Shown piece after piece: positions 4,197-46,161 of a stretch of DNA of 64,000 nucleotides (the first letter of the stretch is position 1; every line of letters begins with the position of its first letter). The DNA lies in the NCBI GenBank assembly GCA_963826225.1, contig CAWGWF010000002.1, positions 4,987 to 68,986 on the forward strand. Direction: 5' to 3'. Position numbers and translations under genes: made by a program. This DNA comes from an uncultured Chloroflexia bacterium. Lineage in GTDB: Bacteria > Chloroflexota > Limnocylindria > Limnocylindrales > CSP1-4. Below the pieces are notes generated by a model, which saw only the letters and a program-made list of their open reading frames with translations, was not told where the DNA came from and searched no databases.

Positions 4197-4214
4197 TCGC
4201 CCGTCGGCCGGGTG

Positions 4215-7608: not shown

Positions 7609-7627
7609 TCCGGTCGAGACCACGGAC

Positions 7628-16853: not shown

Positions 16854-16981
16854 GGCACTTCTCCCGTCGGGATCCCGGTCCGGCCGAGCCTCGGCGATGC
16901 CGGGCGGCGATCGTAGCGAAACGGCGGCGCCGCAGGCTGGCCTTGCGCGCCCGACAGCCAGGGGCGCACCAGCCGCCTCCC

Positions 16982-17524
16982 TCAGGCGCCGGCCTCGACG
17001 TCGCCGCCAGCGCTCCTGGTCCGCCCGCGGCGAGGGTCCGACGCGCGCTCGAGGCTGCGGGCATGGACCCGGATGTGGTCGCGCACCACCTCCAGGTGCT
17101 CGCTGGGGGTGTACTGGCGCGAGCCGGCCCGGTATGGGATCAGGCCGAGCGTCGGCGACAGGATCGCGGCGCGGATCGTGGCGTGAGCGACTCGGAGGCG
17201 CTCGACGATCGTGTCCAACGGCACGGTTCTCGCCTCTGCCACGCTTCGCTCGTTGAGGTCCGAGAGGCGGCCTCGAAGGGGGGTCGGCCGGCGTCCATGG
17301 ACCAGGTCGCCCACGTTGCGGGCGAAGCTCTCGTGCCAGAACGTGACGTGGCCGACGACGTCGCGAACCGCCCACGAGCCATCGACCAGCACGTCGTCGG
17401 AGGCGCTCGCCGCCGCGGCCAGGAGCCGCTCGACGGCCGAGTCGAGCTCGATGAGCAGGTCGGCGCGCACGGTCAGCTCCGAACGATCCGCGACCTCGGG
17501 GCCGGAGCCGTCCTCGTGCGCCAT
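16982..17524 (-). CDS. DinB-like / mycothiol-dependent-enzyme-type four-helix-bundle protein
   Basis: WAVRDVVGHVTFWHESFARNVGDL...YTPSEHLEVVRDHIRVH (His-rich DinB-type pattern). A near-identical paralog lies at 45564..46105. Confidence 0.75.
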   Translation of the reverse strand: MAHEDGSGPEVADRSELTVRADLLIELDSAVERLLAAAASASDDVLVDGSWAVRDVVGHVTFWHESFARNVGDLVHGRRPTPLRGRLSDLNERSVAEARTVPLDTIVERLRVAHATIRAAILSPTLGLIPYRAGSRQYTPSEHLEVVRDHIRVHARSLERASDPRRGRTRSAGGDVEAGA

Positions 17525-17540
17525 GGGGGGATCTTCGCCG
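16982..17540. repeat. gene-sized dispersed repeat (partner 45564..46122)
   Basis: The nucleotide sequence is alignable end to end from ctcaggcgccggcctcgacgtcgc to catggggggatcttcgccgatc, with scattered substitutions and a 1-nt indel. Confidence 0.85.
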
Positions 17541-17819
17541 ATCCTGACGCAGCACGGCAGTCGCGGGAGCGGGCTCGGCGTGGCGCGGAGACCGAGGACC
17601 CGATGGCTGGCCCCGGATCGTCGTAACGGGTCGCCGTCCGTGCTTCCTCATGGTGCTCGCCCACGTCGGGGCGAGTGCCGGCCGCGGTTCGGGCATCGCC
17701 TGGCAGCACGTCACCGTCAAGTCAGCGCGCCACCGTCAAGATTGAGCAGATCGGTTGGGTGCCGCCGTCAATACGGGCAACACGTGACCGTTGAGGCCGC
17801 GTTGGTGGCTGGAGGGGAC

Positions 17820-20305: not shown

Positions 20306-20454
20306 CGACGCAGACCCGGCGACTCCTCGCGCACCGGGCGCGGAGCAGGGCGCGCGCCGAAGGGAGGCCGTGCCTATAAGGACCAGGTCGGCGGCGCAGC
20401 GTTCCGTCCCGCCATGCATGACGCGGGACAGCCGAGAGACAGGAGGATGGTTCG

Positions 20455-29076: not shown

Positions 29077-29279
29077 CCCGAAGCGGGGCACGGGCCCGCC
29101 CGAACACGACGCCGCACCGTGCCTCACGGTCTGCCCGCTGGCGCCGGCCGGCCCCACCTCGCGCGCGGAGAGTCGGCCTGGACGCGACGGTATCCTAGGT
29201 GGCGGACACCACTCGGAGGCAGCCTCGTGCGGCTCGGGGGTCGCGCGACAGCGTGGTCCCACCCGTGCCGGAGGACGTA

Positions 29280-31289
29280 ATGGCGCGCAGCCCCCGCTTC
29301 GACTGCCTCTTCGAGCCCGTTCGCATCGGTCCCGTGACCGCGCCGAATCGCTTCTACCAGGTTCCCCACTGCACGGGCATGGGCCACCGACGTTCCCGGA
29401 CGCTGGCTGCCATGCGCGGCGTCAAGGCCGAGGGTGGCTGGGGGACCGTGTGCACCGAGTTCTGCTCGATCCACCGGACCTCGGACGACGAGCCGTTCCC
29501 GTATGCCGCCCTGTGGGACGACCGTCACGTTCGAGCGATGGGTCGCACCGCCGACGCGATCCATGCCCATGGCGCGCTCGCAGGCGTGGAGCTGTGGCAC
29601 GGCGGCGCTCGCAGCGCCAATCACTACTCCCGGGAGACGCCCCTGGGGGTGCGGTCGCGGCCGGCCGGCGTGTACGACCCGGTCCAGACCAGGGCGATGG
29701 ACAAGTCCGACATCCGGCAGTTCAGACAGCGTCACCGCGAGGCCGCAAGGCGGGCGAAGCGCGCCGGGTTCGACATTGTCTACGTGTATGCGGCGCACGG
29801 GTACCTGGTCAACCAGTTCCTCTTTCCCTCCAACCGGCGAACCGACGAGTACGGCGGATCGCTCGAGAACCGGGCACGCCTGCTGAAGGAGCTGCTCGAG
29901 GAGACGAAGGATGCCGTCGGTGACACGTGCGCCGTGGCCGTGCGCTTCTCCGCCAGCTCCGGTGGTGACGACGGCCATCACGACACCGCCGAGCCGAGGG
30001 CGATGATCGAGCTGCTGGCGGACCTGCCCGACCTGTGGGACATCACCGTCCATGACTACACGCTGGAGATGGGCACCTCGCGCTTCGTGAAGGAGGCCGC
30101 GCTCGAGGCGACGATGTCGTGGGTCAAACAGGTGACGCAGAAGCCCGTGGTCAGCGTGGGACGGTTCACGTCCCCGGAGACGATGCTGCGCCTGGTCCGC
30201 ACGGGCGTCGTCGATCTCATCGGCGCGGCCCGGCCATCCATCGCCGATCCGTTCCTCCCCCGGAAGATCGCCGAGGGACGAGAGGACGAGATCCGGGAGT
30301 GCATCGGCTGCAACATCTGCTACACGGGCGATCAGACGGCCACGCCGATCCGGTGCACCCAGAACCCCACCATGGGCGAGGAGTGGCGCAAGGGCTGGCA
30401 CCCGGAGCGGATCCCGCCCAAGGGCTCGGACGCGTCCGTCCTGATCGTGGGCGGCGGGCCCGCCGGGCTGGAGGCGGCGGTGGCGCTGGGGCGGCGCGGC
30501 TACCGGGTCACGCTGGCCGAAGCCCGCACCCAGCTGGGGGGCCGGGCCTCGCTGGAATCGACGCTGCCCGGGCTTACGGAGTGGGTTCGCGTCCGGGACT
30601 GGCGCCTTGGGCAGCTCGCCACGCTCCGGAACGTCGATGTCTACCTCGGCAGCCTGGTGGACGAGGAGCAGATCCTGGGGTTCGGGGCGGATCGCGTCGC
30701 CATCGCCACCGGGTCCCGGTGGCGCCGGGATGGGATCGGGCGCCATCTCGACGACCCGGTGCCCGGCTGGGATCGACCGTCGGTGCTCACGCCCGACGAC
30801 ATCATGGCCGGCGCCCGGCCCTCCGGCCCGGTCGTCGTCTTCGACGACGACCACTACTACATGGGGAGCGTGGTCGCCGAGGCCCTGCGGCGACTGGGAT
30901 GCGACGTCACGCTGGTGACCCCCGCCAACGAGGTCTCCACCTGGACGTGGCGGACCGACGAGCAGCCACGGATCCAGCGGCGGCTGCTCGAGATCGACGT
31001 GGCGATCGTCACCGGGACGTCCCTGGGGCGCATCGCCGAGGGCTCGGTCGCCCTGGAGTGCGTGTACACCGGCCGCGTGCACGAGGTCGGGGCGGCAACT
31101 GTCGTGATGGTCACGTCCCGGGCACCCGAGGATTCGCTGTTCCGGACACTGGACGGGCGCATCGCCATCGGGCGGATCGGCGACTGCGACGCCCCGGGCA
31201 CGATTGCCACCGCCGTCTACTCCGGGCACCGCTACGCGCGCGAGATGGACGCCACCCAGGGGCGGCTGGCCGGCTTCAGACGGGAGTAG
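29280..31289 (+). CDS. NADH:flavin oxidoreductase of the trimethylamine dehydrogenase / 2,4-dienoyl-CoA reductase type (OYE-like TIM barrel + [4Fe-4S] + FAD/NAD(P) domain)
   Basis: FEPVRIGPVTAPNRFYQVPH, Fe-S motif CIGCNICYTGDQTATPIRC, dinucleotide fold VLIVGGGPAGLEAA. Start taken at the ATG at 29280 within ORF 29199..31289. Confidence 0.9.
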   Translation: MARSPRFDCLFEPVRIGPVTAPNRFYQVPHCTGMGHRRSRTLAAMRGVKAEGGWGTVCTEFCSIHRTSDDEPFPYAALWDDRHVRAMGRTADAIHAHGALAGVELWHGGARSANHYSRETPLGVRSRPAGVYDPVQTRAMDKSDIRQFRQRHREAARRAKRAGFDIVYVYAAHGYLVNQFLFPSNRRTDEYGGSLENRARLLKELLEETKDAVGDTCAVAVRFSASSGGDDGHHDTAEPRAMIELLADLPDLWDITVHDYTLEMGTSRFVKEAALEATMSWVKQVTQKPVVSVGRFTSPETMLRLVRTGVVDLIGAARPSIADPFLPRKIAEGREDEIRECIGCNICYTGDQTATPIRCTQNPTMGEEWRKGWHPERIPPKGSDASVLIVGGGPAGLEAAVALGRRGYRVTLAEARTQLGGRASLESTLPGLTEWVRVRDWRLGQLATLRNVDVYLGSLVDEEQILGFGADRVAIATGSRWRRDGIGRHLDDPVPGWDRPSVLTPDDIMAGARPSGPVVVFDDDHYYMGSVVAEALRRLGCDVTLVTPANEVSTWTWRTDEQPRIQRRLLEIDVAIVTGTSLGRIAEGSVALECVYTGRVHEVGAATVVMVTSRAPEDSLFRTLDGRIAIGRIGDCDAPGTIATAVYSGHRYAREMDATQGRLAGFRRE

Positions 31290-31310
31290 CCCGGGGCGGG
31301 CAGCGCGCGA

Positions 31311-32130
31311 GGCGGGCGGTCCGCCCGTCACGGGGGCGTCACGGGGCAAGGGCACGCTCTGGGCAACCACCACACGGAGCCGTTCATGTCGCTCATCGGA
31401 GATCTCGGCAGCTTCATCCTCGGAACCGCGTATGCGCTGCGCGTCCCGTTCGCGATCGCGGGGATCGTCGCGCTCGTCGTCCTGGCCGCGGTCGCCCGCC
31501 GGCGAGGCTGGGTCGTCGTCGCGCGGCGCCATCCGCTGGCGTCGGCGGTCGCGATCGGCGCCGCGGCGATCGTGGCGGTGCCGCTCGGCTGGTACCTCGT
31601 GTCACCCCTGTTCATCTCGACGGAGCTGCAGGAGGCGCCGGTCGTCGCCGCGGCGAACCCGTCCCCGTCCCCGGTCGCGCCCACGACGCCGGCGCCGACC
31701 GCATCCACCAGCCCGCGACCCGACGCCTCTGCAACGGTGGCACCCACCGCCTCGCCGCCGCCGACGCCCGAACCCTGGACGCCGGCGCCACCGCGACGGG
31801 GCGAGTTCGTCGGGACCGACGAGTTCCACTTCGGACGGGGCACCGCCACCCTGAGCGAGGTCGCGCCGGGGGAGTGGGTCGTCCGGTTCGACGACTTTGC
31901 CGTCCGCAACGGCCCGGACCTCTTTGTCTACCTGTCGCCCGATGCCGACGGCTATGTGGACGGCGCGATCGAGGTCGCCCGTCTCAAGGCCGACAAGGGC
32001 AGCTTCAACACGCAGGTCCCGTCCGGCACGGACGTCTCGGGCGCCAGGTCCGTGCTCATCTGGTGCAAGCAGTTCTCGCACCTGTTCGCGGTGGCCACCC
32101 TCGACCGCTGAGGGAGCGGCGCACGTGCTG
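31311..32130 (+). repeat. 820-bp direct repeat, copy A (contains DM13 gene)
   Basis: Matches 37141..37961 base for base. The only differences I can see are one 1-nt indel at the left end and two substitutions (ctctgggcaacc versus ctctgtgcaacc; gcatccaccagc versus gcatccgccagc). Confidence 0.9.
31386..32111 (+). CDS. DM13 domain-containing membrane protein, copy 1
   Basis: Two N-terminal TM helices, a Pro/Thr/Ala linker and a C-terminal DM13 pattern (GEFVGTDEFHFGRGTATL...FAVRNGPDLFVYLS...KGSFN...SVLIWCKQFSHLFAVA). Confidence 0.8.
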   Translation: MSLIGDLGSFILGTAYALRVPFAIAGIVALVVLAAVARRRGWVVVARRHPLASAVAIGAAAIVAVPLGWYLVSPLFISTELQEAPVVAAANPSPSPVAPTTPAPTASTSPRPDASATVAPTASPPPTPEPWTPAPPRRGEFVGTDEFHFGRGTATLSEVAPGEWVVRFDDFAVRNGPDLFVYLSPDADGYVDGAIEVARLKADKGSFNTQVPSGTDVSGARSVLIWCKQFSHLFAVATLDR

Positions 32131-32440
32131 ACGGTTCGAAGCCGCCGGCGATCGTCCGGTAACGGGCCCGGGACCGGCGCCCTCGGGGTGGTGGGATCCG
32201 GCTGCAAGCCAGGACCGACTCTGCGGCGCCGCGGGGGACGCCAGTCCGTCGGGGCTGCGACCGCAGGGTCCGCGCGGCGCCGCCTCGGCAGGGTGCTGCA
32301 GGAACGGGGGTGCCAACCGGGCACAATGCGTTGACTCCACGCACCCAACCGGGCCGCCAGGCCCTTACCATTGGCGGTCACGACCGGGACCATCGGCGGC
32401 CAGAGGGGGACGCCGGAGCACATCGACGAAGGAGGATCCG

Positions 32441-33292
32441 TTGAGCAAGAAGGTATTGCGGACGATCGCGACCCTCGTGGCGGCCGCGGCACTTGCGCTG
32501 ACGTTCGTGGCGCCCGCATCGGCGATCACGGGCGGCGAACGGGATGGCGCGGGCCACCCGAACGTGGGCCTGATCCTGTTCTACGACGCCGGGGGCCGGT
32601 TCCGGTGCTCGGCGACGCTCGTCTCGCCGACCGTCGTCCTGACCGCGGCCCACTGCACCCTCGGCACGCTGGGCAAGACCGGGGTGACGTTCGAGTCCGA
32701 GATTGCCGAGCAGGGACCGTCGCCGTTCCCGCCCGCCGCCGATCCGTCGGCCGGCTACACGGCGGCCGAGCTCGAGGCCATGGGCATGCTGTCCGGGACC
32801 GCGTATACCCACCCGGACTACTCGGACTTCACGGACATTCGGAACTGGAACGACGTCGGCGTGATCGTGCTCGATGAGCCGGTGGCAGGAATCGCCCCCG
32901 CCTCGCTGCCGCCGCGCGGCTACCTCGGTGGCTTCGCGCAGCCGACGCTCAACAGCACGCTGTTCACGGTCGTCGGCTACGGCACCGAGGTCCGCAAGCC
33001 CGTCTCCGGGCCCCAGAAGCCCCAGCCGATGAGCTACCCGCTCGTGCGCCGGGTCACGACCTCGCCGGGGCAGAAGCTCACGCCCCAGATCCTGCAGCTG
33101 AACGGCGTCATCAACGATGTCCGTGGCGGCGGCGGGACGTGTTTCGGGGACTCGGGCGGCCCGGTGTTCCTCAACGGATACCTCGTCGCGGACACGAGCT
33201 ACGGCTACACGCTCAACTGCCGCTACCTCGGCGGCTACCAGCGGCTGGACATCAAGGTCGTCCAGGACTGGCTGGCGACCTTCGGGCTCTAG
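32441..33292 (+). CDS. secreted trypsin-like serine protease (S1 family)
   Basis: TTG start after GGAGGA. Signal peptide ...FVAPASA. Catalytic LTAAHC and GDSGGP. Confidence 0.9.
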   Translation: MSKKVLRTIATLVAAAALALTFVAPASAITGGERDGAGHPNVGLILFYDAGGRFRCSATLVSPTVVLTAAHCTLGTLGKTGVTFESEIAEQGPSPFPPAADPSAGYTAAELEAMGMLSGTAYTHPDYSDFTDIRNWNDVGVIVLDEPVAGIAPASLPPRGYLGGFAQPTLNSTLFTVVGYGTEVRKPVSGPQKPQPMSYPLVRRVTTSPGQKLTPQILQLNGVINDVRGGGGTCFGDSGGPVFLNGYLVADTSYGYTLNCRYLGGYQRLDIKVVQDWLATFGL

Positions 33293-33465
33293 CACCCAGC
33301 TCCTGACCGATGGCGCCGGCCCCGCCGGCATGACGAGCCCGGGCGCCGTGACCCTCCACCCTCTCGATGCGCTGGAGGACACGACCCGGGCTCGACAGCA
33401 TCTCGATCCGGCGAGGCGGGCGCTCAGCCTGGTCCGCCGGGGTTCACGCCAGTAGGATCGGGCCC

Positions 33466-33630
33466 ATGGACGCCATCGACCTGCGATCCGACACGGTCAC
33501 GCGGCCGTCTCGTGGCATGCGCGAAGCGATGGCCCGCGCGGAAGTGGGGGACGACCAGTTCGGCGAGGATCCGACCGTCAACCGGTTGCAGGAGCGCATC
33601 GCCGACCTGCTGGCGAAGGAAGCCGCGCTA
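33466..33630 (+). pseudogene. 5' fragment of low-specificity L-threonine aldolase (about 55 codons)
   Basis: [55 protein letters not shown] is the canonical N-terminus of the family. Homology ends where the convergent SDR reading frame begins. Confidence 0.65.
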
Positions 33631-34357
33631 ACCCGCCGTCGACCGCGATCACCTGGCCGGTGATCCATGCCGCGTCGGCCGAGACCAGGAACACCGCGAG
33701 ACCGGCCACGTCCTCCGGCTCGCCCACCCGGCCGAGCGGGTGCATCGCGACCGACGCGCGCAGGGTCCCCTCGTGCTCTATCAGGCGGCGGGTCAGGTTC
33801 GAGCGGACGAGTCCCGGTGCGATGGCGTTCACCCGAATGCCGCGTCCGGCATACGTTGCGGCCGCGGATGTGACCAGGCCTTCGATGCCACCCTTGGCCG
33901 CCGCGATGGCCTCGTGATTGAGCAGGCCGATCCGGGTGGCCGCCGACGACATCAGGACGACCGACGCCGGCCGCCCGCGCGGCACGGCCCGGACGAACGG
34001 CCGAAGTGCGTAGAAGGCCGACAGGAGGTTGACCGCCAGGACGTCGTCCAGCTCGGCGTCGGAGAGGGCATGGGCCGGTTTGAGCAACGTGGAGCCCACT
34101 GCGTGGATCAGGGCATCCGGCGGGCCGAGTCGCTCCGCCGCGCCGGCGATCGCCGCGGTCATCTCATCGGCGACGGTCGCGTCGGCGACGAAGCCAGCGG
34201 CCGAGGGCCCCAGCTCGGCGACCAGGGCATCGGTGCGGCCGCGGTCACGGCCCACGACCGCCACGTCCCACCCGGCGGCAACGAGGCGGCGGCCGATCGC
34301 TGAGCCGATGGCGCCCGTTGCTCCGGTCACGATCGCGACTCGAGCGCCGGCCGTCAT
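33578..34357 (-). CDS. short-chain dehydrogenase/reductase family protein (atypical: catalytic Tyr position is Ile)
   Basis: [12 protein letters not shown] Rossmann motif and [11 protein letters not shown]. The expected YxxxK reads IAAAK. The last ~16 codons ([16 protein letters not shown]) read into the aldolase fragment. Confidence 0.8.
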
Positions 34358-34914
34358 CGCTGCCCCTCCGCCGCCGGCTCCGCCCGCAGCTGGCCGCCGC
34401 GGACGGTCCCGCCGATCACCATGGCAGCGGCCACCAGGACGAGGTTCTTGATGATGTACTGGCCCTCCAGCGTCGGGGCGATCGGAACGACCGTGAAGGT
34501 CTCCGTGGGATAGAGCAGCAGCGGCGTCATGGTCCCCAGCATCTGCACGGCCAGCAGCAGCAGGGTCGCGCGCAGGAAGCGTCCGCTCAGCAGTCCCAGC
34601 CCGATGAGGACCTCCCACACGGCCAGCGCCGGCAGGGAGACGGTCGCCGGCACCAGGCCGAAGGTCAGCGCCTCGATGGTGCGCGTCGCGAGGTCCTGCG
34701 CCGGGCTGAGACCCGGGACGAGCTTCAGGGCGCCGAACCACAGGAACACGAGCCCCAGCGCGATGCGCAGCAGCGGCACGGCGGCAGCGGCGAGCGCCAT
34801 CGTGATCGTGCGGTCGAGGTTGTCGAACCCGATGCGCCATCGGGCGTCGGGCGAGCTGAGCGAGTCGAGCATGGGCGTGATCCAGGGTGCGGCGGCTTCA
34901 GGCTCTTCCATCAT
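34354..34914 (-). CDS. DUF417/YkgB-like (DoxX-related) membrane protein
   Basis: LRIALGLVFLWFGALKL...WEVLIGLGLL...EGQYIIKNLVLVAAAM. ATGA overlap with the SDR gene. Start taken at the ATG at 34914. Confidence 0.7.
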   Translation of the reverse strand: MMEEPEAAAPWITPMLDSLSSPDARWRIGFDNLDRTITMALAAAAVPLLRIALGLVFLWFGALKLVPGLSPAQDLATRTIEALTFGLVPATVSLPALAVWEVLIGLGLLSGRFLRATLLLLAVQMLGTMTPLLLYPTETFTVVPIAPTLEGQYIIKNLVLVAAAMVIGGTVRGGQLRAEPAAEGQR

Positions 34915-35039
34915 GGCACGGAGGGGACGCTGCGGCCGCCAGCGCACGTCCCGGGCAGGAGCCGTGCCCGCCGTTGCCAATGCCACCGCAGTCCTCGCAC
35001 CCGCATGGCTGGGCGCCCATGGCCCTCCGGGCGGCTACC

Positions 35040-35850
35040 ATGTCGCCGATGCGGTCCCCTGCCTCCACGCTCCCCGACAGCCTCCGGCGTCGCGTCGTCC
35101 GCGAGGCCGAGGAGCTGTTCTCCCATGCGGAGGACCCTCTTGCCGACACGCTCCGCTATGCGGGTGATCCGGGACTCTTCGGTCCGGATTCCATCACCTG
35201 GGAGATCATGGGCGACGCGTCGACCTTCATCGGGGGCATCCGCGCGCTGCTGGTCCAGGCGGCACACCCGGAGGTCGTGGCCGGCGTCGCGGATCACTCG
35301 CGCTACCGGGAGGATCCGCTCGGACGGCTGTCGCGGACCTCGAACTACGTGACCGCCACCTCGTACGGCGCCATGCCGGAGGTGGAAGCGGCCGTCGACG
35401 CGGTGCGGCGCGCGCACGTCAGGGTGCGCGGGACGTCCCATCGCGGGATCCCGTACACGGCGGCGGATCGGCGCTGGCAGCCTGGGTCCACAACTCGCTC
35501 ACGGACTCGTTCCTCGTCGCGGCCAGGTGTTCGGTCCGCGTTCGCTGTCGACGGAGGAGGCCGACCGGTTCGTCACCGAGCAGGCGCTCGTCGGCCGTCT
35601 CCTCGGGGCCGATCCGCTGCCCCAGACGGCGGTGGACCTCGCCGGCTGGGTCGCGGAGCACCCCGCCGTCGCGCGTCCCCGGGAATGGAGGAGGCCGTCC
35701 GGTTCCTCAGGCACCCGCCCCTCGCCCCCGCAGTGTTGCTCAGCTATCGCCTGTTGGCGGGGGCTGCAGTGGGCACACTCCGGGGCGGCTGCGCAAGGTC
35801 GGGACCTTCGCGCCCGCCGGGCTCTTCGCCCTCGACCACAACCTTGGGCG
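35040..35850 (+). pseudogene. MpaB-family oxygenase (DUF2236), at least three 1-nt frameshifts
   Basis: The family pattern runs through three frames: ...GPDSITWEIMGDASTFIGGIRALLVQAAHPEV...IPYTAAD | ALAAWVHNSLTDSFLVAA | VFGPRSLSTEEADRFVTEQALVGRLLG...DLAGWV | PGMEEAVRFLRHPPLAPAVLLSYRLL. Shifts lie near 35468, 35522 and 35680. The 3' end is approximate. Confidence 0.6.
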
Positions 35851-36265
35851 CTCGCAGAGGATCTGCGAAGGCCAGGGCCATCGAGTCGGTCACCAGGAAC
35901 CACTGGTTCTCGAGACGGCGGGCGTCGGGCGGCAGGGCCCGGTAGTCGAGGTCGTCGAGCCCGTGGCCCTGGGCGCGTTGCCCGGCCGCCCACGCGGTGA
36001 CCCGGGTTCCAGCAGCCAGGAGAGCCCGGTACCGGTCCGCCTCGACGTCGAACTTGGCGGCCACCTGGAAGCCGACCAGGAGGCGTCCCCCTCTCGAGGC
36101 GCGCTCGATGTCCCGGGTCGTTCGCAGCATGGTCCGGGGGTCGTAGGTGAAGCGCGTGGCATCCGGTGCGCGACCCAGCGCCTCCGCGAGACGTCGGCCG
36201 ATCTCGAAGATCCCCGAGTCGCCGGCGCCGGCAGGGTAGGTCCAGTCCATGTCCCTGGCAGCCAT
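35744..36265 (-). CDS. stand-alone DICT-like sensory domain protein
   Basis: LLVGFQVAAKFDVEADRYRALLAAGTRVTAW...LPPDARRLENQWFLVTDSMALAF resembles the DICT pattern (FQ..kF..e..rY..L...v......L..EWFlV). The C-terminal ~40 codons are probably read-through. Confidence 0.5.
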   Translation of the reverse strand: MAARDMDWTYPAGAGDSGIFEIGRRLAEALGRAPDATRFTYDPRTMLRTTRDIERASRGGRLLVGFQVAAKFDVEADRYRALLAAGTRVTAWAAGQRAQGHGLDDLDYRALPPDARRLENQWFLVTDSMALAFADPLRAPKVVVEGEEPGGREGPDLAQPPRSVPTAAPANRR

Positions 36266-36346
36266 ATCGCTGCGCTCCTTGCGATGGTCCGTCTTGGCTA
36301 CCTGGTCATTCGCGAGTTGCTATGTTCGCTCACTTTGCGTCGGTTC

Positions 36347-36362
36347 GCGCAACGAGTTGCGC
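36347..36362. promoter_or_regulatory. perfect 7-bp inverted repeat gcgcaac-ga-gttgcgc in a low-GC stretch upstream of the DICT-like gene
   Basis: Read directly from the sequence, about 85 nt upstream of the start at 36265. Function unknown. Confidence 0.25.
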
Positions 36363-36474
36363 CAGCCATTCGTCAGGCCGCGCGCGCCGAGGCTTCGTCC
36401 GACGCCGCGTCGAGGCAGGACCCCAGCGCCCGGCGCCACAGCCCGGCCTTGCCGGACTCCTTCGACCGCGGAAC

Positions 36475-37007
36475 TCAGCCGCCCTTCGCCTGCTCGGTGG
36501 CACGAGCGAGGTCCGCAGTCGCGCTCCATGTCGTCGCGCGTCGAGGCGGACAATCCGCCGCCGAGCATGCGCTGGACGAGCGTTCCGACACGTTCGTCGC
36601 GCCGATCTCGAACCGCAGAGTCGTCATCGTGCCGTCGTCGTCCGGGACCAGCCGCCACGTCGTCCGGTACGTCGCGCCGGCCTCGCGGGCGACCGCGGCT
36701 AGGAGGCTGGCGGCTCCCATGCGACGACACTCAGCTCCTGGGCGTGCTCACGATCGAAGACCCGGCGTGTCTGCCGCCAGCGGGTCCCCACGCCCGCCGA
36801 CTGCGCCGTGAGGTACTCGACGCAGACGTACGAGGCGACGACCCCTGGATAGCGATCGATCGCGCTGACGGTGGCCCACGCAGCGTCGACGGGCGCGATG
36901 ACGCGCCGCTCAACCTCGATCGTGATCACGTTCGCGGTCCATGGACTATCGGGGGCGGCTCCTTCGACGACGGGTGCTCGGGCAGCTCGCTCGCAGCCAT
37001 GAAGCAT
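36475..37007 (-). pseudogene. SRPBCC (polyketide cyclase/START-like) protein, frameshifted
   Basis: ORF 36699..37064 (...VITIEVERRVIAPVDAAWATVSAIDRYPGVV...VVAWEPPAS*) continues in another frame as ORF 36475..36720 (LLAAVAREAGATYRTTWRLVPDDDGTMTTLRFEIGA). There is a 1-nt shift near 36700, and the C-terminus probably holds further shifts. Confidence 0.55.
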
Positions 37008-37140
37008 CAAGGTGCGTGCGGCGCGTCTCGGCAAGGCGCAGGCCGGGCGGGTACCGTCGGCCACGTCGCGGCGGAGGCGGACGCGGCCCCCGGAGCGGAG
37101 CCCGGCCGCCCGGGCCTTCGGGGTGACCCCGGGACGCCTC

Positions 37141-37961
37141 GGCGGGCTGGTCCGCCCGTCACGGGGGCGTCACGGGGCAAGGGCACGCTCTGTGCAACCA
37201 CCACACGGAGCCGTTCATGTCGCTCATCGGAGATCTCGGCAGCTTCATCCTCGGAACCGCGTATGCGCTGCGCGTCCCGTTCGCGATCGCGGGGATCGTC
37301 GCGCTCGTCGTCCTGGCCGCGGTCGCCCGCCGGCGAGGCTGGGTCGTCGTCGCGCGGCGCCATCCGCTGGCGTCGGCGGTCGCGATCGGCGCCGCGGCGA
37401 TCGTGGCGGTGCCGCTCGGCTGGTACCTCGTGTCACCCCTGTTCATCTCGACGGAGCTGCAGGAGGCGCCGGTCGTCGCCGCGGCGAACCCGTCCCCGTC
37501 CCCGGTCGCGCCCACGACGCCGGCGCCGACCGCATCCGCCAGCCCGCGACCCGACGCCTCTGCAACGGTGGCACCCACCGCCTCGCCGCCGCCGACGCCC
37601 GAACCCTGGACGCCGGCGCCACCGCGACGGGGCGAGTTCGTCGGGACCGACGAGTTCCACTTCGGACGGGGCACCGCCACCCTGAGCGAGGTCGCGCCGG
37701 GGGAGTGGGTCGTCCGGTTCGACGACTTTGCCGTCCGCAACGGCCCGGACCTCTTTGTCTACCTGTCGCCCGATGCCGACGGCTATGTGGACGGCGCGAT
37801 CGAGGTCGCCCGTCTCAAGGCCGACAAGGGCAGCTTCAACACGCAGGTCCCGTCCGGCACGGACGTCTCGGGCGCCAGGTCCGTGCTCATCTGGTGCAAG
37901 CAGTTCTCGCACCTGTTCGCGGTGGCCACCCTCGACCGCTGAGGGAGCGGCGCACGTGCTG
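37141..37961 (+). repeat. 820-bp direct repeat, copy B (contains DM13 gene)
   Basis: See 31311..32130. Confidence 0.9.
37217..37942 (+). CDS. DM13 domain-containing membrane protein, copy 2
   Basis: 241 aa, identical to copy 1 except for one residue (TASASP versus TASTSP). Confidence 0.8.
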   Translation: MSLIGDLGSFILGTAYALRVPFAIAGIVALVVLAAVARRRGWVVVARRHPLASAVAIGAAAIVAVPLGWYLVSPLFISTELQEAPVVAAANPSPSPVAPTTPAPTASASPRPDASATVAPTASPPPTPEPWTPAPPRRGEFVGTDEFHFGRGTATLSEVAPGEWVVRFDDFAVRNGPDLFVYLSPDADGYVDGAIEVARLKADKGSFNTQVPSGTDVSGARSVLIWCKQFSHLFAVATLDR

Positions 37962-37990
37962 TGGAGGCTCGACGCGGACGACGTGGCGCC

Positions 37991-38923
37991 ATGACGACGA
38001 CGGACACCGCCCCACGCCGGTCGGCCGGGATGGCCTCCGCGCGTGTCGTGGTCACGGCCGTCGTCGCCATGGCGCGACCCAGCCAGCTCCTGCTCGTCGC
38101 CACGGTCATGCTGCTGGGCGTCGCGTTCGCCGCGGCGCACGGCGCGTCGCCGGGCTCGGCGGCGCTGGTGGTCGGGCTGCTGGCGTTGCTCCCGGTGGCG
38201 GCCGGCATCCATCTCGCCAACGAGTACGCCGATCACGAGACCGACAGCCTGACGGCGAGGACGCTGTTCTCCGGCGGGTCCGGCGCGCTCGCCCGGACGG
38301 GGCTCCCGCGCTCGATGGCGCTGCGCGCGGCGCAGGCCGCCACGCTCGCGGGCTTCGGCGCCGCGGTCGCCGGCTGGTCGGCGGGCGTTCTCCCCGGGCC
38401 GGCGTTCGTGATCCTCGGGCTCGGTGCTGCCGGTGGATGGGCCTACTCGCTTGGGCCGTTCCCGCTCGCCTGGCATGGTCTGGGCGAGGCGGCCAACGGG
38501 ATCCTCGGCGGGATGCTCCTACCGCTCTACGGTGTGGCGGTCGCGGGCGCCAGCCTGGATGCGGCCGCAGTCGCGGTGTTCGTGCCGCTCACGCTGGTCG
38601 TGATGGCCAACCTCCTGGCGACCACATGGCCCGATCGCGTGGCCGACGCCGCGGTCGGCAAGCGCACCCTCGCGACCCGCTGGCAGCCGGCCGGCCTGCG
38701 CCGACTGTTCGCGACCCTCGCGGCGAGCGCCACGGCGCTGATCGCGGCAGGACTGCTGGCCTGGCCGGTCGTTGTCGTGCTTGCCGGGCTGTCGGCCGTG
38801 CCGTTGCTGATCGTCGGGCTCGCCTGGTACACCCGCCGCGAGTCGCCATTCCCGACGGTCGCCGCAATGGTCTGGCTCGTCGTCGCCCAACTGGGAGCGT
38901 GGGCGCTCGTCGCGCAGGGGTGA
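37991..38923 (+). CDS. UbiA-family prenyltransferase
   Basis: 8-9 TM helices. First Asp-rich motif NEYADHETD. Start taken at the ATG at 37991. Confidence 0.8.
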   Translation: MTTTDTAPRRSAGMASARVVVTAVVAMARPSQLLLVATVMLLGVAFAAAHGASPGSAALVVGLLALLPVAAGIHLANEYADHETDSLTARTLFSGGSGALARTGLPRSMALRAAQAATLAGFGAAVAGWSAGVLPGPAFVILGLGAAGGWAYSLGPFPLAWHGLGEAANGILGGMLLPLYGVAVAGASLDAAAVAVFVPLTLVVMANLLATTWPDRVADAAVGKRTLATRWQPAGLRRLFATLAASATALIAAGLLAWPVVVVLAGLSAVPLLIVGLAWYTRRESPFPTVAAMVWLVVAQLGAWALVAQG

Positions 38924-39244
38924 GGCTGGCGGATGGATGAGACAGCCTGGGCCGCGGATCCGGCGTCCTCGTCACCGAGCGGACGCGCGCACGTGCGCTT
39001 GCACCTCCACGGGCAGGGAGCGTTCTCCTGGAGGCGATCGACGCCCCGTTGTGATCGCCGCGGACTGCGTGGGATGCGGTTCGTCGCTCCCGTCGCAACG
39101 TTTCGGCAGGCTGCGCCCAAGTGGCGCAGACTCCTCCCTCGACGCCGGGCGGATCTCCGCCGATGGATCGCCTGGCACGGTGGTGCGGCGGCACGGACAT
39201 GTTCGGCGGCTGGGAGGGCGGCGTTGAACCAGAAGCATCCGGAG

Positions 39245-40942
39245 ATGGTGGCCCTCAACGCCGACGTGGTGGGCTACAGCGGACTCATCGCCGACGATCT
39301 CGAGGCGACGACGGCGACGATGGAGGACTACCGGGAGCTCGTCGAACGAAGGGTTCGAGAGAACCGCGGAACCCTCGTCAACTTCGTCGGTGACAACTTC
39401 ATGGCCGTCTTCGACGACGCCATGGACGCGATGCGGACCGCCATCGCGATCACCACCGAGATCGAGACCCGCCATCCCGGGCACGCCGCGTCGCGGCGAG
39501 CGCGATTCCGGATGGGCATGGACCAGGGCGTCGTCGCCGTGTCAGGCGACGAGTACTTCGGTGACGCGCTCAACATCGCCGCCCGCATCCAGGCCCTCGC
39601 GCAGGCCGGGGGGATCAGCGTCTCCGGGCGGGTCTATCGCGCCCTGGACGAGCCTGCCCTGCGCTTTCGGCCCATCGGCCGGCAACGCCTGAAGAACATC
39701 CCCGAGGAGATCGAGGTATACGAGTTCTCGGATCTCCCCGTGGAGGCCTCCGCCTCGCCCGTCCGACGCTCACTGTCGCTCGAGGCACCCATCGTCGCGG
39801 TGCTCCCGATCCATGCGGAGATGGAGGACGCCTCCGTTCGCGCCACGGCGGACGTCCTGCGGGTGGACCTGATCCACCGCCTCGCCAGGATCCCGCAGCT
39901 GAAGGTGATCGACGCCAGGGCCGAGCCGTCCGGCACCGTCACTCGCGACACGGCTCGCTACATGCTCGAGACCGGCGTCCACCAGGCGGGCGACACCGTC
40001 CGGATCTACGCCGAGGTCATGGACGTGACCTCCATCAACATCGTCAAGTCCTTCAAGTGGACCGCGAAGGCAGCCGACCTGTTCCTGATGTCGGATGCGA
40101 TCGCCGATGAGATCGGGCGCGCGCTCGAGGTCGATCTCGTGGTCGGCGAGCCGGCCGGCCTCTACGCCGACCTTGACGACCCCGAGGCGATCGAACAGGT
40201 CTACCTCGGCTGGTACCAGATCACCTCCGCGACGCCCGAGGGATGGGCGCGCTCGCTGGAGCACTTCGGCAGGGTGGCGCGCGCCCATCCGGACAAGCCC
40301 TATGGACACGTGCTGTCCGCGTTCGCGAACTGGATGGGCGCCAGCAACGGCTGGACTCGGGATCCCGAGGCGGCGTTGCGCGTCGCCCGGGAGCAGGTGC
40401 AGGCCGGCCTCGCGGCGGGCGATCAGACCGGCATGGCCCAGACGGTCGGGGCGGCGATCCTGATGTCCGAACGGCGCGGACAGGAGGCCCTCGACGCGAT
40501 CGAGAGCGCAGAGATCCTCAGGCCCACCTGCGATGCCACCTACGGCGTGGCCGGGAGCGTCCGCCGCTACCTCGGCCAATTCGATCAGGCGATCGACCTG
40601 ACGACGACGGCGATGCGGCTGACACCCGTCAACAAGCCCTGGTATCCCACCGTGCAGGCCTGCTCCCTGTTCCTGGGCGGGCGGGTCGAGCAGGCCGCGA
40701 CCGTGGCGGAGATGGTCCTCGAGCACCAGCCGCAGAACCTGGAGGCGCTCCTCGTGCTGGCGGCCGCCCAGGTCGAGCTCGGCCTTGACCGGCGCGCCCG
40801 GGCGACGGCCGAGCTGATCCGCGAGCGATACCCGACCGTGGACGTCGACAGGTGGCTGGCGGACAACCCCTACCAGGCCCAGGACCTTGTGGACCGGTGG
40901 CGTGACGACCTCGTCACCGCCGGGGTGATCGCCCCGGCCTGA
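39245..40942 (+). CDS. class III adenylate/guanylate cyclase fused to a TolB-N-like segment and TPR-like C-terminal domain
   Basis: VALNADVVGYSGL, FVGDNFMAVF, GDALNIAARIQ and EIEVYEF, then a long helical-repeat region. The start is the ATG at 39245 or the TTG at 39224. Confidence 0.85.
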   Translation: MVALNADVVGYSGLIADDLEATTATMEDYRELVERRVRENRGTLVNFVGDNFMAVFDDAMDAMRTAIAITTEIETRHPGHAASRRARFRMGMDQGVVAVSGDEYFGDALNIAARIQALAQAGGISVSGRVYRALDEPALRFRPIGRQRLKNIPEEIEVYEFSDLPVEASASPVRRSLSLEAPIVAVLPIHAEMEDASVRATADVLRVDLIHRLARIPQLKVIDARAEPSGTVTRDTARYMLETGVHQAGDTVRIYAEVMDVTSINIVKSFKWTAKAADLFLMSDAIADEIGRALEVDLVVGEPAGLYADLDDPEAIEQVYLGWYQITSATPEGWARSLEHFGRVARAHPDKPYGHVLSAFANWMGASNGWTRDPEAALRVAREQVQAGLAAGDQTGMAQTVGAAILMSERRGQEALDAIESAEILRPTCDATYGVAGSVRRYLGQFDQAIDLTTTAMRLTPVNKPWYPTVQACSLFLGGRVEQAATVAEMVLEHQPQNLEALLVLAAAQVELGLDRRARATAELIRERYPTVDVDRWLADNPYQAQDLVDRWRDDLVTAGVIAPA

Positions 40943-41013
40943 CCCAGGGGGCGCACGGCACGGCTGGTCCCCCGGCAACGCCCGACACGTTCGGGTTGAC
41001 CCGCCCGCCACGA

Positions 41014-42072
41014 TCACACGTGTCCGGCGCCTGCGGGCGGCGGTGCGTCACCGGCGAAGCGACCGAAGATCGGAGCGTACTTGCGCCGGTATGCCGCCGG
41101 CGTCAGCCCGGTGACGCGCTTGAACAGCCGTCGGAAGAACGTCGGGTCCGCGTAGCCGACCGCGAAGCCGATGTCGTCGACCGCTTCGTCACCGGTCTCG
41201 AGGCGCTCGCGGGCGACTTCGATCCGGAGGGCGTGGACGTAGTCGATCGGCCGGCGCCCCGTCGCGGCCCGGAAGCGCCGCGCGAATGTCCGGGACGTGA
41301 GCCCCGAGCGCTGCGTCATCGCGGCGACGGGATTGGGTGTCGCGTAGTCCGTCTCGAGCCAGGCAGCGCTGTCGGCGACGATGCGATCCTCCAGATGCGG
41401 CCGGCGGGTCATCGCCGAGAACGGCAGCTGACCGTCCTGGTGGCCGGCGAGGAGGTAGATCCGGGCCGTCCTCGTGGCGTGCACCGGGCCGCAGAGGCGC
41501 CCGATCAGGTAGAGGGCGAGCTCCTGCCAGGATGTCGCGCCACCCGCCGTCACGACGCCCGTCGCCTCGCTCGAGAGGTCGAGGATCGAGCCCGCCTTGA
41601 AGCGCACGCGGGGGTAGGACGAGGCGAACAGATCGACGTAGGCCCAGTGGCCGGCACAGGACCGCCCATCGAGCAGCCCGGACTCGGCGAGCAGCAGCGA
41701 CCCGGCGCACACGCTCGCGATCACGGCGCCACCCTGGTGCATCGAGCGCAGCCAGGCCGACTCCGCGACATACCGGCCGTGTGGCGGCGCGTCGATCGGC
41801 GTGAACATGTCACACACCACGACAGCGTCGGCGTCATGGACGTCGGCGATGGCCGCGTGCGGCTCGATCCGGACGCCGCCGTAGCAGCGGAATGGCTCGG
41901 CCGTCGCGGCGACGATCCGGACATCGAGGAGCGGGTCCCCGGACGTGGCGGAGGTCATGTCCGGCCAGGCGGTCCCGACGGAGCCCAGGACGTCGTACAA
42001 CCCGTAGAGCACCGCCGCGGACGTCTCCGGCGCGGCGAACAGGACGATTCGAGGACGCCGATCCGATGTCAT
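41014..42072 (-). CDS. GlxA-family transcriptional regulator (DJ-1/PfpI domain + AraC HTH)
   Basis: Nucleophile elbow SVCAGSLLLAESG. C-terminal AraC HTH (IGFAVGYADPTFFRRLFKRVTGLTPAAYRRKY). Start taken at the ATG at 42072. Confidence 0.9.
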   Translation of the reverse strand: MTSDRRPRIVLFAAPETSAAVLYGLYDVLGSVGTAWPDMTSATSGDPLLDVRIVAATAEPFRCYGGVRIEPHAAIADVHDADAVVVCDMFTPIDAPPHGRYVAESAWLRSMHQGGAVIASVCAGSLLLAESGLLDGRSCAGHWAYVDLFASSYPRVRFKAGSILDLSSEATGVVTAGGATSWQELALYLIGRLCGPVHATRTARIYLLAGHQDGQLPFSAMTRRPHLEDRIVADSAAWLETDYATPNPVAAMTQRSGLTSRTFARRFRAATGRRPIDYVHALRIEVARERLETGDEAVDDIGFAVGYADPTFFRRLFKRVTGLTPAAYRRKYAPIFGRFAGDAPPPAGAGHV

Positions 42073-42164
42073 TTTTGCCCCGCTTCGGTGGATTCTCGCT
42101 CTTCCAGCATGACACGGGGCGACGGATACTGCGAGACGCGACCCCAATCCCTCGGGAGTGAACC

Positions 42165-43553: not shown

Positions 43554-43699
43554 GGCGACCACCGACCGATGACGACCACCCTGCCGACCAAGGAGCTGCC
43601 CGTCCTTCCCGTCGCAACACGGAGGCACGTTGCGCAACGGGGGCGCAGACTCACCCCCCACCTCGGGCGGACCTTGCCGCCGGTGGGTCGGAGGACAGC

Positions 43700-44239: not shown

Positions 44240-44255
44240 CCGCGGAGCCCTGCTG

Positions 44256-45464: not shown

Positions 45465-45563
45465 CGAGCCGCGGCTGTCATCGCGCCGCCAGTCCCCCCG
45501 CCCGTTGCGGCTGGCTGTCGTCCAGGCGCGTCGAGCGCCCTCCGGGCGCGCCGGTACCGTGCC

Positions 45564-46105
45564 TCAGGCGCCGGCCTCGACGTCGCGGACAGCGCGCGTC
45601 GTCCGCCCGCGGCGAGGGTCCGACGCGCGCTCGAGGCTGCGGGCATGGACCCGGATGTGGTCGCGCACCACCTCCAGGTGCTCGCTGGGGGTGTACTGGC
45701 GTGAACCGGCCCGGTATGGGATCAGGCCGAGCGTGGGTGACAGGATCGCGGCGCGGATCGCCGCCTGAGCGGCTCGGAGGCGCTCGACGATCGTGTCCAA
45801 CGGCACGGTTCTCGCCTCTGCCACGCTTCGCTCGTTGAGGTCCGAGAGGCGGCCTCGAAGGGGCGTCGGCCGGCGTCCATGGACCAGGTCGCCCACGTTG
45901 CGGGCGAAGCTCTCGTGCCAGAACGTGACGTGGCCGACGACGTCGCGAACCGCCCACGAGCCATCGACGAGCACCTCGTCGGAGACGCTGGCGGCGCGGC
46001 CAGGAGCCGCTCGACGGCCGAGTCGAGCTCGATGAGCAGGTCGGCGCGCACGGTCAGCTCCGAACGATCCGCGACCTCCGGGCCGGGGCCGTCCTCGTGC
46101 GCCAT
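45564..46105 (-). pseudogene. DinB-like protein, second copy, 1-nt deletion frameshift
   Basis: ORF 45722..46105 carries the N-terminus, and the tail of ORF 45564..46694 carries the rest. Relative to copy 1, ggaggcgctcgccgccgcggcc reads ggagacgctggcggcgcggcc, which is one base shorter. Confidence 0.7.
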
Positions 46106-46161
46106 GGGGGGATCTTCGCCGATCGAGCGACTCGGTCACGGGGCGCCCGTACCATGCCGTC

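Follow-up and report, generated by a model that had tools for sequence, protein, structure and literature searches.

The question raised by this locus is how two nearly identical copies of one complete gene came to bracket a 5-kb patchwork of other genes. The locus lies in an uncultured Limnocylindria-like Chloroflexota genome from a soil metagenome, and the whole stretch of DNA that was analysed, 64 kb in length, is called the window. The repeat is referred to as R and the segment between its two copies as X, so the arrangement reads R-X-R.

The DM13 repeats and their flanks

Copy A of the repeat (31311..32130, +) and copy B (37141..37961, +) are direct repeats of 820 and 821 bp on the same strand, with 5,010 bp in between. 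Local alignment and self-BLAST place them at 99.6% identity over 821 columns and bear out the single indel and two substitutions seen in the initial annotation. Each repeat comprises a whole gene, preceded by 75 bp and followed by 19 bp (31386-32111 in copy A, 37217-37942 in copy B); the copy A gene encodes 241 aa and is assigned to the DM13 family by Pfam (E=7e-12). Beyond either end, identity falls at once to background in the alignment. Since just three further repeats were found by self-BLAST in the 64-kb window, the DM13 pair is far beyond chance. Only 1.3% of placements of a random 820-bp segment follow the boundaries of a gene as these do.

The few differences between the copies are informative. 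The indel is one extra T in copy B, at 37148, and the substitutions are G/T at 31362/37193 (site 1) and A/G at 31707/37538 (site 2). The A at 31707 gives Thr108, which is unique within the 90%-identity cluster of copy A (n=5 members), and the site 2 difference is a mutation private to copy A. Both the extra T of copy B and its T at site 1 also occur in outgroup relatives, and the G of copy A at site 1 is common to L001 and L002, two contigs described below. In the 15 nt that lie 5' of a conserved GGTCC anchor, copy B agrees with the relative L003 at 11/15 positions and copy A at 7/15.

Copy A stands 3' of a flavin oxidoreductase gene with Oxidored_FMN and Pyr_redox_2 domains (left flank 29199..31300, +; stop at 31289), and copy B stands 5' of a UbiA prenyltransferase gene, as first described. 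The right flank (37967..38923, +) begins with a 24-bp remnant and continues into UbiA from a probable start at ATG 37991, with a product of 310 aa on record. Similarity of the oxidoreductase to relatives stops at about 31300, which puts the left breakpoint within 31300-31311. On the other side, similarity to the relative L146 starts 6 bp past the right end of copy B, and the 24-bp remnant is the 3' end of the upstream neighbour gene, DUF547 in relatives. Both outer joints are illegitimate, the left at 31300-31311 and the right at 37961-37967, inside the DUF547 remnant.

Relatives place every gene of the DM13 region among other neighbours. DM13 comes after an ECF sigma/anti-sigma pair in its closest relatives, UbiA follows DUF547, the oxidoreductase has different neighbours, and the protease gene of X (89-90% aa identity) is found in the order PEMT(-)|protease|325-aa gene|GGDEF. 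The check proposed at the outset, for an oxidoreductase-DM13-UbiA order without the insert, drew a blank among species-level relatives, which share none of the window's adjacencies at this locus, and was answered by one contig only, L001. Judged from such sequence comparisons, DM13 has acquired lineage-specific, novel junctions on both sides (oxidoreductase|DM13 and DM13|UbiA), so the "chromosomal DM13 gene" of the initial annotation was not an old resident. The DM13 family is multi-copy in these genomes, with two loci in some genome bins, and two DM13 genes within 10 kb of each other were found at 0 of about 140 related loci. An ancient stable duplication, which the initial annotation had named as an alternative, can be set aside because no relative carries a diverged two-copy arrangement.

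A second pair of direct repeats surrounds the first. A DinB/MDMPI_N family gene at 16980..17543 (-) has its partner in a DinB-family gene at 45562..46124 (-), which is 96% identical and carries a 1-bp deletion that shifts its frame. This repeat, too, has edges close to those of a single gene, as do 0.75% of random placements, and its copies enclose 28.6 kb with the DM13 locus wholly inside. Neither of the nested pairs has mobility genes nearby.

The mosaic segment between the repeats

Segment X (32131..37140; 5,010 bp) opens with an intact gene for a secreted S1 (trypsin-like) protease, identified by Pfam at 32441..33292 (+), whose homology to relatives is confined to 32317-33296. It is followed by an N-terminal stub of a Beta_elim_lyase (threonine-aldolase-type) gene at 33478..33630 (+), which covers profile positions 1-51/288 and corresponds to residues 38-88 of the ORF 33367-33663. 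On the opposite strand lies a pair of genes recognized by Pfam (33578..34986, -), a DoxX-family membrane protein gene (34354-34986) and, 8 bp on, an SDR gene (33578-34345). The protease, the aldolase fragment, the SDR pair and the frameshifted genes are thus as originally listed, with the correction that the product of 34354-34986 is matched by Pfam to DoxX and not to DUF417; the two are related families. The SDR match stops at residue 404 of the ORF 33578-34840 (-), at about nt 33629, and the tail of the SDR reads into antisense aldolase sequence. The stub and the SDR gene are in this way joined tail-to-tail at about 33630, where both family similarities end, and this joint is a candidate for the scar left when a circle closed.

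The remainder of X consists of damaged genes. A pseudogene of an MpaB/Lcp-type oxygenase (35022..35745, +) has profile matches in two frames, positions 1-93 in one and 114-156 in another, with about three reading-frame changes between 35400 and 35700. Next comes a DICT-domain gene (35744..36265, -; Pfam DICT) that is apparently 3'-truncated: its similarity to the L003 homologue, matched over aa 19-145 only, stops at about 35884, and the open frame of that homologue runs for at least 365 aa and continues past the contig end. An SRPBCC/Polyketide_cyc2 pseudogene (36478..36990, -) carries one frameshift near 36700-36720, and its repaired translation matches Polyketide_cyc2 positions 2-110/142 across the break. 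Assembly indel errors are an unlikely source of these frameshifts, since 0 indels separate the window from short-read contigs over 3.2 kb of repeat, flanking sequence and protease gene, the two pseudogenes lying outside this comparison.

In composition, X is native. Its GC content is 71.8%, that of the window 71.3%, and the tetranucleotide distance of X falls at the 24th percentile among 5-kb windows. No mobility or replication genes were found in X, and its plasmid or phage similarity amounts to nothing beyond single-gene matches. Nothing points to a foreign or autonomous circular element, which counts against the initial proposal of a Campbell-type integration, a proposal that is supported in part. 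Several ORFs of the window have no Pfam match at all.

Possible crossover or break repair at the DM13 locus

Two further contigs bear directly on the history of the locus, at which strain-level variation between contigs is 0.1-0.8%. L001, a 1,313-bp short-read contig that is 99.9% identical, has the order oxidoreductase-DM13-UbiA without X, and L002, which comes from a different sample and is 99.5% identical (0.5% diverged), has the order oxidoreductase-R-X. L001 stops 56 bp beyond the repeat and L002 29 bp beyond it, and both look like low-coverage fragments. L001 may reflect a genuine pop-out, or the repeat may have collapsed there at low coverage; a fragment that ends so soon past the repeat is possibly not a true empty site. 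Taken at face value, the single-copy state of the nearest strain and the insert junction of a more diverged one favour a recent loss of X over a recent gain.

The reading tentatively preferred here, with slightly less than even confidence, is that R-X-R is a real chromosomal feature and the cointegrate of a single homologous crossover between DM13 copies. Two DM13 copies whose homology is limited to that gene would undergo a RecA-type single crossover: a 5.8-kb native circle of DM13 and X, its ends joined illegitimately at about 33630, would recombine with a DM13 copy between the oxidoreductase and UbiA, no site-specific recombinase being called for, and the reverse recombination would remove X and one repeat to give oxidoreductase-DM13-UbiA. 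With homology limited to the gene setting the length of the repeat, edges that follow the gene ends are to be expected, and the gene contexts here are truly gene-limited. Because the crossover would run both ways, the presence of X is expected to vary between cells and X should in principle be amplifiable.

Campbell-type integration is known for a direct duplication of the homology round the insert, hybrid repeats and reversibility, with no recombinase supplied by the element. The DM13 locus has the same geometry as its laboratory form, insertion-duplication, with two direct copies flanking the insert. It differs in having no identifiable donor circle, replicon or selectable function, in an insert that is native and partly made of pseudogenes, and in a resident copy that is recent in its context. 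In favour of the original proposal are the geometry, the split of site 1 and the indel, the joint at 33630 and the arrangement of L001. The direct orientation, the 99.6% identity and the abrupt ends all support a single crossover, as do the derived left end of copy A next to the outgroup-like left end of copy B, and the shared end of the aldolase and SDR similarities at about 33630. Also in its favour are the gene-following edges of the DinB pair, the orders read in L001 and L002, the short-read contig starts that may mark both right junctions in one sample, and the presence of both DM13 alleles on the deposited contig, the last two described further below. Site 1 and the indel are split between the copies as a crossover predicts for hybrid repeats, a pattern drawn from two differing sites only and also compatible with mutation after duplication.

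Several points weigh against it. A circular or tandem form, with the right end of X, R and then the left end of X, is absent from all contigs retrieved. The joint at 33630 need not be a circle closure, since X carries several other scars, the DICT/MpaB joint at about 35884 and the frameshifts among them. The similarity of the strains speaks against insertion, the nearest being single-copy and a more diverged one having the insert junction. The resident DM13 copy presupposes two illegitimate junctions of its own, formed earlier around a single gene, and the crossover would then only shift the origin of the module back by one step. What the data show directly are the repeat with its sharp gene-following edges, the broken genes and joints of X, the lack of mobility genes, the novelty of both outer junctions among related genomes and the independent short-read contigs across the junctions. 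We infer the circular intermediate, homologous recombination and the order of events, and either the two-copy or the single-copy form may have come first, by insertion or by deletion.

Duplication during the repair of a double-strand break fits the data about as well, and is judged somewhat unlikely. Either the DM13 module alone would have been copied from copy B, whose left flank has an ancestral look, to a site 5 kb upstream, or a fragment of more than one unit from a circular or tandem template would have been inserted between the oxidoreductase and UbiA, leaving an 820-bp terminal redundancy. Homologous recombination would act only later, deleting X to give the form seen in L001. Both outer junctions are illegitimate, similarity to relatives extends about 8-15 nt further in the left flank of copy B than in that of copy A, and the similarity of the strains favours R-X-R as the older state. 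There is also experimental precedent: in Streptomyces ambofaciens, pieces of the cell's own DNA between 30 bp and 18.8 kb long are copied and pasted into repaired breaks via illegitimate joints, which gives dispersed duplicates with no mobile element (PMC5869714). By itself, however, this route leaves unexplained an exact one-gene duplicate and a second case in the same window, where edges that follow a gene would be a coincidence twice over. The junctions show no evident sign of microhomology or filler sequence, and no Ku/LigD gene is among those recognized in the window.

Other explanations and known systems

An assembly artefact, in which a path fuses two strains or loci at DM13 or wrongly takes in a 5.8-kb circle that is separate from the chromosome, is unlikely. 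On this account no one genome would have both DM13 copies 5.8 kb apart, and it draws on the window being part of a metagenome-assembled contig, on the 0.1-0.8% variation between contigs and on the path in L001 that skips X. The copies, however, are told apart by the indel and by two base changes, of which one is found in copy A alone, both alleles are present on the deposited 207,979-bp contig, and X is unique sequence, unbroken between them. The order oxidoreductase-R-X is read independently in L002, and the junctions recur in short-read contigs of other samples, which speaks against the misassembly that the initial annotation allowed for. In one sample the protease contig and the UbiA contig both begin exactly 30 nt inside the right end of the repeat, the expected fork into X and UbiA. 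Taking 30 nt to be k-1 of those short-read assemblies (assuming k = 31), both right junctions would coexist in that sample as a de Bruijn fork. A repeat of 820 bp is also probably below typical long-read length, the assemblies of close relatives being Nanopore/Flye (PMC12313526).

It is similarly improbable that old DM13 paralogues, long in separate contexts, were recently homogenised by gene conversion, in which case their near-identity would say nothing about a recent insertion. The family is multi-copy, gene conversion acts well on direct repeats at a distance of 5.8 kb, and edges that follow the gene would be expected if homology had never gone beyond it. The near-identity, however, takes in the 75-bp leader and continues for 19 bp after the stop codon, and then drops to background with no older fringe of lower similarity, the related loci hold no such close pair, and an original gene-sized duplication would still be required.

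A site-specific mobile element ended by the DM13 repeats, be it a genomic island, prophage remnant, integron cassette or composite transposon, has only the geometry of direct repeats around an accessory gene block in its favour and is very improbable: no called ORF of the 64-kb window has a Pfam match to integrase, transposase, recombinase or relaxase families, as the initial annotation had noted for the first two, the window has no tRNA or tmRNA gene, Rfam match or att-like feature, and inspection of the repeat ends by eye showed neither terminal inverted repeats nor target-site duplications. The product of the repeat is a DM13-domain protein and no transposase, and the 820 bp are ordinary coding sequence in place of short att sites. 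An integron cassette was likewise rejected, with only 19 bp past the stop inside the repeat and no IntI-type integrase found. In IS26-type translocatable units and composite transposons, which also have the form R-X-R, R and X leave together as a circle that re-enters at another R; here R encodes a DM13 protein and lacks both inverted repeat ends and target duplications.

A closer parallel is offered by the amplifiable units of Streptomyces, high-GC soil bacteria, in which, on the model of Young and Cullum, direct repeats of several hundred nt lead to a circle, a deletion or an amplification; these units are RecA-dependent, 14-33 kb long and found in plastic accessory regions (PMC5869714). The DM13 locus shares the segment bounded by direct repeats, and differs in having one copy of X, no amplification in the assembly and a host in the Chloroflexota, not an actinomycete.

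The nested DM13 and DinB repeats suggest a wider, rather doubtful reading, that gene-anchored single-crossover re-entry of circularised DNA, native or from related strains, is a regular route by which these soil Chloroflexota reshuffle accessory DNA and take it up. Fragments would circularise and re-enter on one conserved gene, building gene-by-gene mosaics without transposases or integrases; the 28.6-kb block bounded by DinB would be the older insertion and the 5.8-kb DM13 unit the younger one inside it.

The DM13 locus reveals no new kind of element or mechanism; it has the look of an ordinary and unstable structure made by homologous recombination, rather than of a mobile element. Annotators are alerted to two genuine pseudogenes (MpaB and SRPBCC) and two apparently truncated genes, and for assembly, the locus illustrates how 5.8 kb can be skipped in short-read contigs at a repeat of less than 1 kb. 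Should the forms with one copy and with two truly coexist, the locus would represent a natural, recombination-driven gain or loss of a 5.8-kb segment, an example from an uncultured, abundant soil lineage that proceeds without mobile-element machinery.

Geometry and gene content of the DM13 repeat pair

A repeat search, local alignment and self-BLAST agree that the stretches at 31311–32130 (copy A) and 37141–37961 (copy B) are direct repeats, with 99.6% identity over 821 aligned columns, which confirms the initial annotation of two near-identical repeats that each hold a complete DM13 gene. The copies differ by an extra T at 37148, by G/T at 31362/37193 (site 1) and by A/G at 31707/37538 (site 2), and by nothing else. 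Each contains an intact gene for a 241-amino-acid DM13-domain protein (Pfam PF10517, E = 7e-12), and the repeat also takes in 75 bp 5' of the gene and 19 bp after its stop codon; outside either end, similarity falls at once to background. Since self-BLAST found only three other repeats in the 64-kb window, the pair is no chance match. The A at 31707 gives copy A a Thr108 that is absent from all other members of the 90%-identity cluster, and the 207,979-bp source contig, deposited at NCBI and ENA, carries both alleles. Exact-protein look-ups of the 320-aa UbiA start and the 121-aa SRPBCC open reading frame from this region returned no match, nor did that of copy A, although the collection does contain the copy A protein.

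Gene calls and Pfam agree with the earlier placement of copy A after a two-domain flavin oxidoreductase gene (29199–31289, its stop codon 21 bp before the repeat) and of copy B before a UbiA prenyltransferase gene (ATG at 37991, 30 bp past the repeat). The 5,010-bp segment between the copies, X (32131–37140), holds an intact gene for a secreted S1 protease (32441–33292), a Beta_elim_lyase (aldolase) stub covering only profile positions 1–51 of 288, a DoxX-family gene paired with a short-chain dehydrogenase gene on the minus strand (33578–34986), an MpaB-type oxygenase gene with about three reading-frame changes in the interval 35400–35700, a DICT-domain gene whose resemblance to a longer homologue breaks off at about 35884, and an SRPBCC/Polyketide_cyc2 gene with one frameshift. 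The gene list in the initial annotation was accurate, the sole correction being that the membrane protein is DoxX by Pfam and not DUF417. The aldolase stub and the dehydrogenase abut tail-to-tail, and as both lose their Pfam family similarity at about 33630, this position marks an illegitimate joint. Three contigs assembled from short reads of other samples matched 3,247 bp of the window with no indel. The matched sequence comprises the repeat with its flanks and the protease gene, and lies outside the pseudogenes; given this agreement across neighbouring sequence, assembly indel errors are an unlikely source of the frameshifts. Peptidases of actinomycetes, Micromonospora among them, share 73–76% protein identity with the S1 protease, an unusually high value across phyla that suggests horizontal transfer.

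At the left edge of the repeat, copy B has the extra T and the T at site 1 in common with the outgroups, which it also matches at 11 of the 15 bases just 5' of a conserved GGTCC anchor, compared with 7 of 15 for copy A, about background for this GC content. The derived left end of copy A is common to L001 and L002, short-read contigs of two other strains. From this comparison, copy B appears to have kept slightly more ancestral sequence at its left junction, and 31300–31311 is a true breakpoint; the right edge is uninformative on which copy is older. A palindrome or ECF-type promoter at the left edge was considered and dropped, as copy B does not conserve it. The scan for sigma-70 promoters and terminators gave nothing useful, its sole "terminators" falling inside the DM13 coding sequence.

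Neighbourhoods in related genomes and a second, enclosing repeat

Relatives of the DM13 protein come from soils and sediments, nearly all in bins labelled Chloroflexota, Chloroflexia or Candidatus Limnocylindrales/Limnocylindria, and the nearest named relative of the protease carries the same taxon label. The best species-level relatives, found by DM13 protein search of genome and metagenome collections, share 80–88% nucleotide identity with the window, and 88–90% was measured for the two closest species (loci L003 and L015). The two closest relatives stem from the Microflora Danica project, in which Nanopore reads were assembled with Flye and polished with Medaka (PMC12313526). Loci were compared with the window by blastn and tblastn, unfiltered tblastx having given high-GC noise only. 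In none of the relatives compared does an oxidoreductase or a UbiA gene stand beside DM13. In L003 and L015, the DM13 module lies directly 3' of a gene pair for an ECF sigma factor and a putative anti-sigma factor, and the counterpart of this pair in the window (6227–7608) has no DM13 behind it. In these relatives (L003 2213–4362, L015 8617–10760), the DM13 gene begins 7 bp past the pair and its terminator-like hairpin, which corresponds to window 7628–7653. The pair is retained in the window (6227–7657) with 90% nucleotide identity, and an M20 peptidase gene stands where DM13 would be. DM13 may be a target of that ECF sigma factor. About 3 kb of extra genes right downstream of DM13 set the two relatives apart (L003 4536–7237 versus L015 10760–10889), so the downstream side of DM13 is variable in other lineages too. 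About 21 related loci (e.g., L024 13259–14533) carry, no more than 10 kb from DM13, a homologue of the NB-ARC/TPR/LuxR-type regulator at window 23417–25732, with about 38% amino acid identity, which may reflect a recurring association.

The other genes of the region lead to different surroundings. UbiA homologues (82% and 70% amino acid identity) are preceded by YjeF_N, Crp and DUF547 genes; similarity to one such related locus, L146, starts at 37967, 6 bp past the repeat end, and a 24-bp remnant of the DUF547 gene 3' end remains 5' of UbiA in the window. The oxidoreductase homologues (89% and 84%) have unrelated neighbours, similarity ending about 11 bp past the stop codon at 31300, a weaker comparison in that the family has many paralogues and paralogy may confound it. 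The protease homologues (89–90%) occur in a conserved setting of PEMT, protease, a 325-aa gene and GGDEF, and only 32317–33296 of the protease region can be aligned to relatives. Because UbiA, oxidoreductase and protease each belong to a different conserved neighbourhood, no ancestral arrangement could be reconstructed from their homologues. Since no relative shares an adjacency, the region is mosaic from gene to gene, and the repeat pair has lineage-specific junctions on both its outer sides. A second DM13 gene within 10 kb was found in none of about 140 related DM13 loci, so this is no ancient conserved duplication, an alternative that the initial annotation had raised.

The DM13 structure lies within another repeat of the same kind. 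A complete DinB/MDMPI_N-family gene is directly duplicated on the minus strand (16980–17543 and 45562–46124, 96% identity), with a 1-bp deletion causing a frameshift in the second copy. The repeat boundaries fall within about 20 bp of the gene ends, and the pair encloses 28.6 kb, including the entire DM13 structure. The L146 locus runs contiguously (2979–6038) from UbiA to a DUF2652 gene (homologue of window 44256–45464) and on to a homologue of the small gene at window 20455–20856; the window sequence concerned lies at 37967–45464 and 20387–20855. In the window, the DUF2652 and small-gene blocks stand in reverse order relative to L146, 5.3 kb (adenylate cyclase-TPR, AraC/DJ-1 regulator and BBE oxidase) separate UbiA from DUF2652, and the small gene is about 17 kb upstream of UbiA. 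Were the DinB-bounded block closed to a circle, the blocks of this one relative would adjoin again, with the DinB gene and the genes at 17544–20305 between them. On an approximate gene map, a segment placed at random takes in exactly one complete gene and ends between genes on both sides in 1.3% of cases if it is 820 bp long, and in 0.75% if it is 564 bp long, which makes two gene-following repeats in one window unlikely to be coincidence. Elsewhere in the window, 98-bp direct repeats (4099–4196 and 5667–5764, 88–92% identical) border a BBE/FAD-linked oxidase gene on the minus strand (4215–5594); as the start of a MerR regulator gene (5699–6148) falls in the right copy, the left may be a duplicated MerR 5' fragment. 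A paralogous BBE oxidase (42165–43553) accounts for a 76% inverted repeat (4947–5181 and 42578–42815).

Origin of the two-copy structure

Boundaries that follow a gene are expected of a single homologous crossover with Campbell geometry, because two DNA molecules with nothing but that gene in common can recombine only within it, and the length of their shared stretch then becomes the length of the repeat. In the preferred account, a 5.8-kb native piece carrying DM13 and X would have been circularised by an illegitimate joint, for which about 33630 is the candidate, and the circle would have recombined with a DM13 copy that had the oxidoreductase gene on one side and UbiA on the other. Recombination in the opposite direction would delete X, and later gene conversion could hold the copies near-identical. 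The Campbell-type integration first proposed is partly supported: it agrees with the geometry, with the pattern of alleles and with a possible empty site, and there is no sign of a foreign or autonomous circle. The main weakness is that the resident DM13 must itself owe its position to two illegitimate joints, one on either side of this single gene.

The strongest competing account is duplication in the course of break repair. The DM13 module would then have been pasted by itself upstream of X, or else a circular or tandem template would have yielded a copied fragment, longer than one unit, for insertion at a break. In Streptomyces, experiments have shown stretches of endogenous DNA, from 30 bp up to 18.8 kb, inserted at repaired breaks, and direct repeats of several hundred nucleotides recombining to give circles and amplification (PMC5869714). 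Break repair and the preferred circle-and-crossover account put the events in a different order but imply the same behaviour of the locus today.

The direction of change is addressed by L001 (SRR18684939, 1,313 bp), which runs from 437 bp of the oxidoreductase 3' end through one DM13 module and reaches 56 bp into the UbiA side, and differs from the window by one base (99.92%). It has G at both sites, which could reflect a single copy of the ancestral kind, crossing over between site 1 and site 2 in a genome like that of the window, or a collapsed repeat threaded by a short-read assembler. That the contig ends 56 bp past the repeat suggests low coverage, at which assemblers may trim alternative branches as tips. 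An oxidoreductase–DM13–UbiA arrangement free of the insert, sought as a check on the integration, is thus displayed by this contig but not by the species-level relatives, which have other neighbours, and L001 is only suggestive of an empty site. L002 (99.46% identical to the window) has the junction into X, and the closest-matching L001 is without X; if L001 is real, parsimony would make the single-copy form the result of a recent loss rather than the ancestral form. The available evidence leans towards loss.

An assembly artefact, the other alternative initially raised, is probably not the explanation, and a chimeric assembly path was given a low probability. The DM13 copies are distinguishable, not least by the Thr108 peculiar to copy A, and X is unique sequence, unbroken from copy to copy. 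In another sample, L002, 0.54% diverged, passes from the oxidoreductase flank through the repeat into 29 bp of X. In sample ERR12037369, the protease contig begins at window 32101 and the UbiA contig at 37932, so that each starts exactly 30 nt short of where the repeat ends on the right (positions derived from gene offsets). This length is taken to be k−1 for these assemblies, assuming k = 31. Such starts would reflect a de Bruijn graph fork, and both right-hand junctions would then exist within one sample.

Mobile-element readings were rejected, as Pfam scans of called open reading frames over all 64 kb (several without any match) found no resolvase or relaxase and, in line with the initial annotation, no integrase or transposase; the 64 kb holds no tRNA or tmRNA genes and no Rfam families, no inverted repeats or target duplications were seen by eye at the repeat ends, and the 6.65-kb region has plasmid similarity in the single DoxX gene only (about 69%) and essentially no phage similarity. 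With their defining features looked for and absent, the locus falls outside the integrase-, transposase- and integron-based families. By its composition, X was judged not to be of foreign origin: its GC content is 71.8% (71.3% for the window), and among 5-kb windows its tetranucleotide distance to the overall profile ranks at the 24th percentile.

In its workings the DM13 locus resembles a Campbell-type cointegrate, or a small amplifiable unit with direct repeats at its ends. The structural variation is of a known kind, and this is a further case of it, from a soil lineage that has been little studied. The more interesting possibility, that these bacteria regularly reshuffle their genomes by recombination anchored on single genes, is a minority reading and unlikely. 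Under both the circle-and-crossover and the break-repair accounts, the 820-bp repeats are substrates for the deletion of X and possibly for its amplification.
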